Shown: positions 39,060 to 39,173 of the stretch, piece after piece
Layout of the letters: each line of letters begins with the position of its first letter
How positions within the stretch are numbered: the first letter of the stretch is position 1
Source: Escherichia coli
GTDB taxonomy: Bacteria; Pseudomonadota; Gammaproteobacteria; Enterobacterales; Enterobacteriaceae
Length of the DNA stretch: 64,000 nt
Assembly: GCF_003334335.1 (NCBI RefSeq)
Contig: NZ_QOWQ01000018.1
Reading direction: 5' to 3' (one strand)
Position numbers and translations under genes: made by a program
The notes under the pieces: model-generated
The model's input: only the letters and a program-made list of their open reading frames with translations
Databases searched by the model: none
Told to the model about the DNA's origin: nothing

Positions 39060-39173
39060 ATGCGTCGGCTGTTGCACTATCTCATCAATAATATTCGCGA
39101 GCATCTGATGCTTTATCTTTTTCTCTGGGGATTGTTGGCAATTATGGATCTGATCTATGTGTTTTATTTTTAG
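39060..39173 (+). CDS. yceO: Small hydrophobic protein at the position of K-12 yceO
   Basis: 37-codon [40 protein letters not shown] with AGGAG Shine-Dalgarno 7 nt upstream; recognised by position only. Confidence 0.5.

Follow-up and report, generated by a model that had tools for sequence, protein, structure and literature searches.

The window analysed here is a 64,000 nucleotide stretch of Escherichia coli DNA. Within it, the genes dinI, bssS, solA, yceO, yceJ and yceI follow one another on the + strand and are succeeded by a convergent trhO. Directly behind solA is a short open reading frame (ORF) of 37 codons. It opens with ATG CGT CGG, the ATG being at 39060, and closes with TTT and a TAG stop codon at 39171-39173. 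The 601 bases surrounding yceO (38900-39500) are 100% identical to K-12, and the yceO locus was found in 5425 of 5426 complete E. coli genomes. The features of the region are as follows.

37894..39012, + strand: solA ORF, with its TAA stop codon at 39010..39012, 47 nt before the yceO ATG.
38976-38978, + strand: TGA inside solA, the nearest true in-frame stop upstream of yceO, with 27 open codons between it and ATG 39060.
39021..39042, + strand: GC-rich hairpin, ACGGCCUC-CAGAAU-GAGGCCGU, present in the MFE and centroid folds and showing covariation.
39033..39035, + strand: upstream in-frame ATG, the start codon in NC_000913.3 and UniProt; it falls in the hairpin loop and 3' arm, lacks a Shine-Dalgarno (SD) sequence and is found in 7/58 distinct sequences.
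39042..39046, + strand: short U-tract TTTTT after the hairpin; the first of the five U is paired.
39050..39053, + strand: SD sequence GGAG (within CAGGAG, 39048-39053), 6 nt before ATG 39060.
39060..39173, + strand: yceO coding sequence (CDS), 37 codons plus TAG, identical to PGAP CDS WP_001253418.1; its start is the one favoured here.
39087..39104, + strand: codons for the juxtamembrane motif N10-N11-I-R13-E14-H15, conserved among 58 distinct orthologues.
39105..39170, + strand: codons 16-37, predicted transmembrane (TM) helix, with W23 (39126-28) and the invariant D30 (39147-49).

The ORF is yceO, a known gene, and its product is an ordinary member of the DUF2770/YceO family. Using hmmscan, the Pfam model PF10968 (DUF2770) was matched over positions 1-36 of 36 with an i-Evalue of 3e-22. 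The model aligns to residues 1-36 of the 37-aa ORF, which are residues 10-45 of the 46-aa ORF described below. Scans of both the 37-aa and the 46-aa forms against NCBIfam gave no family. In RefSeq/PGAP genomes, one MG1655 assembly included, 39060-39173 is annotated as WP_001253418.1, a 'YceO family protein' of 37 aa. Thus, the 37-codon boundaries proposed in the first-pass annotation coincide exactly with an existing CDS, the N-terminus is where the DUF2770 model starts, and there is no difference in coordinates or sequence. The same annotation had assigned the ORF to yceO from its position after solA. Comparison with K-12 upholds the assignment: b1058 (NP_415576.1) shares the locus, strand, frame and stop codon of the window ORF.

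What differs is the start codon. In NC_000913.3, b1058 is 141 nt / 46 aa long and occupies 1119307..1119447 (-), equivalent to window 39033..39173 (+). The reference start is therefore 27 nt upstream of the start used by the 37-codon ORF and by PGAP, which is also the conserved start (39060). UniProt YCEO_ECOLI has the identical 46-aa sequence, and both the 46-aa and 37-aa sequences are abundant in the protein collection. Hence, the first-pass statement that K-12 YceO is longer was accurate. Conversely, the claim that an in-frame stop directly upstream prevents any longer ORF in this frame was mistaken. TTA (39057-59) precedes the ATG, no stop interrupts the 27 codons between the ATG and the TGA, and the ORF listing contains a same-frame ORF of 46 aa at 39033..39173. 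A TAA does occur at 39058-39060; it is out of frame and shares the A of ATG 39060. The 46-codon ORF is thus physically present in the window, and is disfavoured by comparative and signal evidence rather than by a stop codon.

The signals for initiation at the two ATG codons are unequal. A strong SD sequence had been claimed for the 37-codon ORF, and the spacing of GGAG bears this out. The predicted duplex with the 16S rRNA 3' end has an energy of -6.9 kcal/mol before ATG 39060, compared with -1.7 kcal/mol before ATG 39033. In other genera, a purine-rich SD-like motif is found 4-9 nt upstream of the conserved start.

For comparative analysis, we assembled a SolA-anchored set of orthologues with one genome per species (56 loci), and further loci came from exact-protein look-ups. 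Values of pN/pS and start-codon counts refer to 58 distinct orthologous sequences. Using tblastn, a YceO-like ORF was detected directly after solA in ~55 species of Enterobacteriaceae. These belong to Escherichia, Citrobacter, Salmonella (arizonae and diarizonae), Kluyvera, Kosakonia, Leclercia, Pseudescherichia, Yokenella, Pluralibacter, Siccibacter, Pseudocitrobacter, Intestinirhabdus and others. All of the orthologous loci (62/62) align from the Met of the 37-aa form, and their ORFs are 37-39 codons long. The codon at the conserved start is ATG in 52, GTG in 5 and ATA in 1 of the 58 sequences. Mean pairwise differences at codon positions 1, 2 and 3 are 0.289, 0.101 and 0.496. In the yceO frame, pN/pS is 0.275, against 0.50-2.8 in the other five frames. 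By region, the value is 0.196 for codons 2-15 and 0.340 for codons 16-36, and reaches 0.95 for the K-12 extension (codons -9 to -1). Judged from these sequences, the yceO ORF is conserved under purifying selection in ~55 species, far beyond chance.

Initiation downstream of 39060, for example at Met17, was also considered. Since constraint is strongest in codons 2-15, it was rejected. Some loci depart from the common pattern at the other end. In one genome of Salmonella enterica subsp. arizonae (locus L035, 3660-3770), the conserved Trp23 codon is replaced by a premature stop; because of this stop, yceO is probably a pseudogene in that genome. The gene is intact at the diarizonae locus (L036). 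YceO also varies in length at its C-terminus among E. coli strains, some of which have proteins of 41-45 aa when counted from the 37-aa start. Changes of the stop codon or of the frame within the TTTTATTTTTAG run of the T-rich 3' end (39160-39173) seem to underlie these variants.

The upstream ATG has a narrow distribution. An in-frame ATG at -9 codons occurs only in E. coli, E. albertii and, by coincidence, one Kluyvera, together the 7/58 distinct sequences listed above. No in-frame upstream ATG is present in 37/58 sequences, and 21/58 have a stop within nine codons upstream. In E. marmotae, one extra nucleotide between GGAG and the conserved ATG shifts the upstream ATG out of frame. The codon equivalent to the upstream ATG of K-12 is TTG in E. 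whittamii and in two other Escherichia lineages. We also made an exhaustive profile search for DUF2770 members; among 1.84 billion representatives there were only 64 hits. Full-length family members from this search measure 36-41 aa. Where N-terminal extensions have been called, they are mutually unrelated or run into the SolA C-terminus. Longer N-termini in the family are therefore distributed as expected of gene-caller artefacts.

The interval between solA and yceO contains a hairpin with an 8-bp stem and a 6-nt loop. The A and U of ATG 39033 are the last loop bases, and the G opens the 3' arm. With RNAalifold, only 3 pairs were recovered from a ragged MAFFT alignment; explicit pair counting was used instead. 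Across 50 sequences, 88.9% of cells are consistent with pairing, compared with 23-56% when the partners are slid. Compensatory changes affect 5/8 pairs; for instance, C-G is replaced by U-A in 13 sequences and U-A by C-G in 14. The observed covariation (score 0.266) exceeds that of shuffled data (0.143), and 0/500 shuffles reach 0.266. The T tail that follows has 4-7 T in Escherichia and many Citrobacter; it is poor or lacking in Kluyvera and a number of other genera. From hairpin to yceO start, the distance is 8-22 nt in most genera and up to 30 nt; in the window it is 17 nt. Conservation of the residues 'RPFL' in the extension corresponds to translation of the hairpin 3' arm and U-tract.

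We scanned 38600-39700 for consensus promoters and terminators. The scan called no terminator at the hairpin and none after yceO; hence, the hairpin was judged by folding and covariation. Likewise, the Term-seq supplements examined list no RNA 3' end at the hairpin. Positions 39021-39046 nevertheless form a GC-rich stem-loop of conserved structure, as in intrinsic terminators, and the hairpin is a probable intrinsic terminator or attenuator of solA. In one E. marmotae genome (L004, CP025979.1, positions 1-1500), a ~1.4 kb element lies inside this hairpin, flanked by duplicated CTCCAAAATGAGG, and separates an intact yceO from solA. We take the product of the insert to be an IS4-type transposase.

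Nor did the scan detect a σ70-like promoter anywhere on the + strand of 38600-39700, a region that includes the 460 nt upstream of yceO. Because of this, and because yceO starts 17 nt past a terminator-like hairpin, we infer that the gene would be transcribed mainly by read-through from solA. Such read-through would fit the very low level of YceO in LB described below. A supplementary table (file 2 of PMC7815308) has an entry at K-12 1120419 (-), which is window ~38061; it is classed there as internal to solA, ~167 nt in. The entry is presumably an RNA 3' end. In two distant family members (L069 and L070), yceO has a perfect TATAAT ~30 nt before its start and may therefore be served by its own promoter at these loci.

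Gene order around yceO is stable on one side and variable on the other. The genes yceJ-yceI are absent from E. albertii (L005, L013), Kluyvera, Pseudocitrobacter, Yokenella and Pluralibacter (L047-L054, L056, L061-L063). At these loci, yceO is still directly behind solA and is then followed by the convergent trhO. Since bssS-solA-yceO is fixed and yceJ-yceI is missing in some genomes, yceJ-yceI behaves as a variable cassette. A strict functional link between yceO and yceJ-yceI was rejected, as yceO persists without them. In the distant DUF2770 members L067-L070, a gene for a 209-aa GerE/LuxR-type protein lies between solA and yceO in an otherwise equivalent neighbourhood. Strict coupling of yceO to solA is weakened by this intervening gene. 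Considered with the loss of yceJ-yceI, it makes the linkage look like old synteny and not proof of shared function.

No yceO was found after solA in Enterobacter sp. BIGb0383 (L041) or Shimwellia pseudoproteus (L058). The former keeps the hairpin, which is followed by an AT-rich spacer leading to yceJ. In the window, the yceO-yceJ spacer spans 39174-39433 (~260 nt); its length is nearly constant across genera and it contains conserved islands. These are tandem CTGACA motifs at 39183-88 and 39193-98 (TTGACA in most genera), ATTCAAAATTATTGAAATAAAAATAAATAT at ~39322-39352, GTTGCAAT at 39372-79 and CACGCCATTTT at 39391-39401. The islands are probably promoter or regulator sites for yceJ-yceI; the consensus scan found no + strand promoter.

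The hydrophobic, single-TM-like character originally ascribed to the product agrees with our predictions. Hydropathy is highest in the 19-residue Kyte-Doolittle window at residues 16-34 of the 37-aa form, with a score of 2.15. AlphaFold2, provided with the family alignment, predicts a single helix for residues 2-36 with a mean pLDDT of 94.3. The predicted hydrophobic helix is long enough to span a membrane. A profile search of the PDB with YceO found no relative with a solved structure. Among the 58 distinct orthologues, no substitution affects N11, R13, H15 or D30; N10 and E14 reach at least 95% conservation, and W23 is nearly invariant. The pattern of NN-x-RE-H, a helix Trp and an Asp on the C-terminal side is retained in the distant members P0143, P0151, P0154 and P0158. 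The N-terminal 15 residues of YceO contain three Arg and the near-invariant NN(I/V)REH motif.

These properties are those of a protein that would form one continuous helix. A short, positive and amphipathic N-terminal part (MRRL..NNIREH) would lead into a membrane span of ~22 residues. Because of the positive-inside rule, the N-terminus is likely cytoplasmic, which would put the C-terminal end at the periplasmic face. An invariant Asp in a helix that crosses the membrane once points to a specific polar contact, either with a partner membrane protein or between YceO molecules. In analogy to other small membrane proteins of bacteria, YceO could bind a larger membrane protein using the Asp/Trp face of the helix and the NNxREH motif.

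Databases and papers label yceO as a small protein involved in biofilm formation and the acid stress response. In ribosome profiling under acid stress, there was no significant change for yceO. The tables use the 141-nt model and, for both reasons, these data are uninformative on the start. Our literature search found no paper on DUF2770 and only unrelated papers for b1058, and VanOrsdel (2018) does not mention yceO. Published small-protein tagging data, to which the first-pass annotation pointed, do include the gene. A chromosomal YceO-SPA fusion gives a western band in LB at a very low level (PMC12529367, 2025). According to the estimate given, a pBAD clone exceeds this level at least 10,000-fold, and YceO is among the proteins listed as detected by top-down MS (PMC12529367). 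Because the tag is C-terminal, the western does not separate the 37-aa start from the 46-aa start. A peptide from the N-terminal extension was seen only with the pBAD24 clone of the 46-aa ORF (PMC12529367).

Comparative evidence clearly favours the 37-aa start over the 46-aa start. Functional YceO is most likely a 37-residue peptide initiated at ATG 39060 by means of the GGAG SD sequence, and ATG 39033 is probably not the functional start. The nine-codon extension of the reference would be an artefact of choosing the longest ORF, with an ATG that happens to sit in the loop of the post-solA hairpin. Were the reference correct, its standing as the longest ORF, its adoption by NC_000913.3 and UniProt, and the intact frame from ATG 39033 in E. 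coli and E. albertii would all be accounted for. Moreover, a stable protein can be detected when the 46-aa ORF is placed after the ribosome-binding site of a vector. Conversely, this ATG has no SD sequence and is buried in a stable, covarying hairpin, few orthologues possess it, and it is out of frame in E. marmotae. The extension also lacks coding constraint, and both the Pfam model and PGAP begin at the internal Met. We thus consider a 46-aa protein started at ATG 39033 highly improbable. It is also quite improbable that E. coli makes both forms, with an SD-driven 37-aa peptide accompanied by a minor, lineage-specific 46-aa proteoform arising by re-initiation after solA. The geometry would allow this. 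The solA stop is 8 nt before the hairpin, and ATG 39033 is in frame just 21 nt past that stop, so re-initiation there is feasible. A ribosome terminating on solA would open the hairpin 5' arm, and no frameshift separates ATG 39033 from the rest of yceO in E. coli or E. albertii. Yet the extension is not conserved beyond these two species, and there is no experimental indication of a second form. Furthermore, few ribosomes could continue to ATG 39033 if the hairpin terminates most solA transcripts.

The hairpin might be more than a terminator, acting as a conserved control element that sets yceO output and, in E. coli and E. albertii, also hides an in-frame AUG from which a longer proteoform could be made conditionally. 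It may act as a regulated attenuator, as a processing or stability site, or as a gate for ribosomes arriving from solA. This proposal draws on the covariation of the hairpin, its constant proximity to the yceO start and its persistence where the termination U-tract is missing; we regard it as unlikely. A different question is whether YceO, instead of having a regulatory or accessory role as a small membrane protein, is a membrane-damaging peptide resembling type I toxins. A short, very hydrophobic single helix with a very low native level would be compatible with toxicity. However, an Rfam search (E <= 1) across 36500-41000 gave no family and no known antitoxin RNA, and constraint is absent from the antisense frames. 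Toxin loci of the mobile, multi-copy kind differ from yceO, a core gene present in one copy whose synteny is fixed across genera. Cells over-expressing it from pBAD24 were harvested for MS and western analysis, and toxicity was not reported (PMC12529367). Hence, we find a toxin hardly credible. Taken together, we think it very likely that the locus is yceO/DUF2770 with a 37-aa start and an artefactual nine-codon extension in the reference, encoding a helix that would be expressed by read-through transcription and would act on a membrane partner. Of these points, gene identity, conservation under purifying selection, the SD sequence, the covariation of the hairpin and the predicted helix are results of this analysis, and the literature shows that YceO exists; where translation starts, how the helix is oriented, how the gene is transcribed and how YceO acts are deduced.

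The gene itself is not new, and the practical value of the analysis is a start-codon correction of the 46-aa record. There is good support for shifting the start in the K-12 reference and in UniProt to the internal Met. One consequence concerns the targeted-MS assay for YceO, in which the extension peptide is one of two target peptides (PMC12529367). If the 37-aa start is true, this peptide will be absent from wild-type cells, whatever the abundance of YceO. Plasmid constructs, synthetic peptides and predictions of structure or partners that are based on the 46-aa form would be equally affected. For mutagenesis of YceO, the NNxREH motif and the invariant intramembrane Asp provide concrete residues.

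Several small inner-membrane proteins, including AcrZ, MgtS, MgrB, CydX and KdpF, modulate larger membrane proteins. YceO resembles them in being shorter than 50 aa, in having a single predicted TM helix with a short, charged and probably cytoplasmic end, and in being encoded by a chromosomal core gene. It has no sequence relationship to them. Furthermore, CydX and KdpF are encoded inside the operon of a membrane complex, whereas YceO is not.
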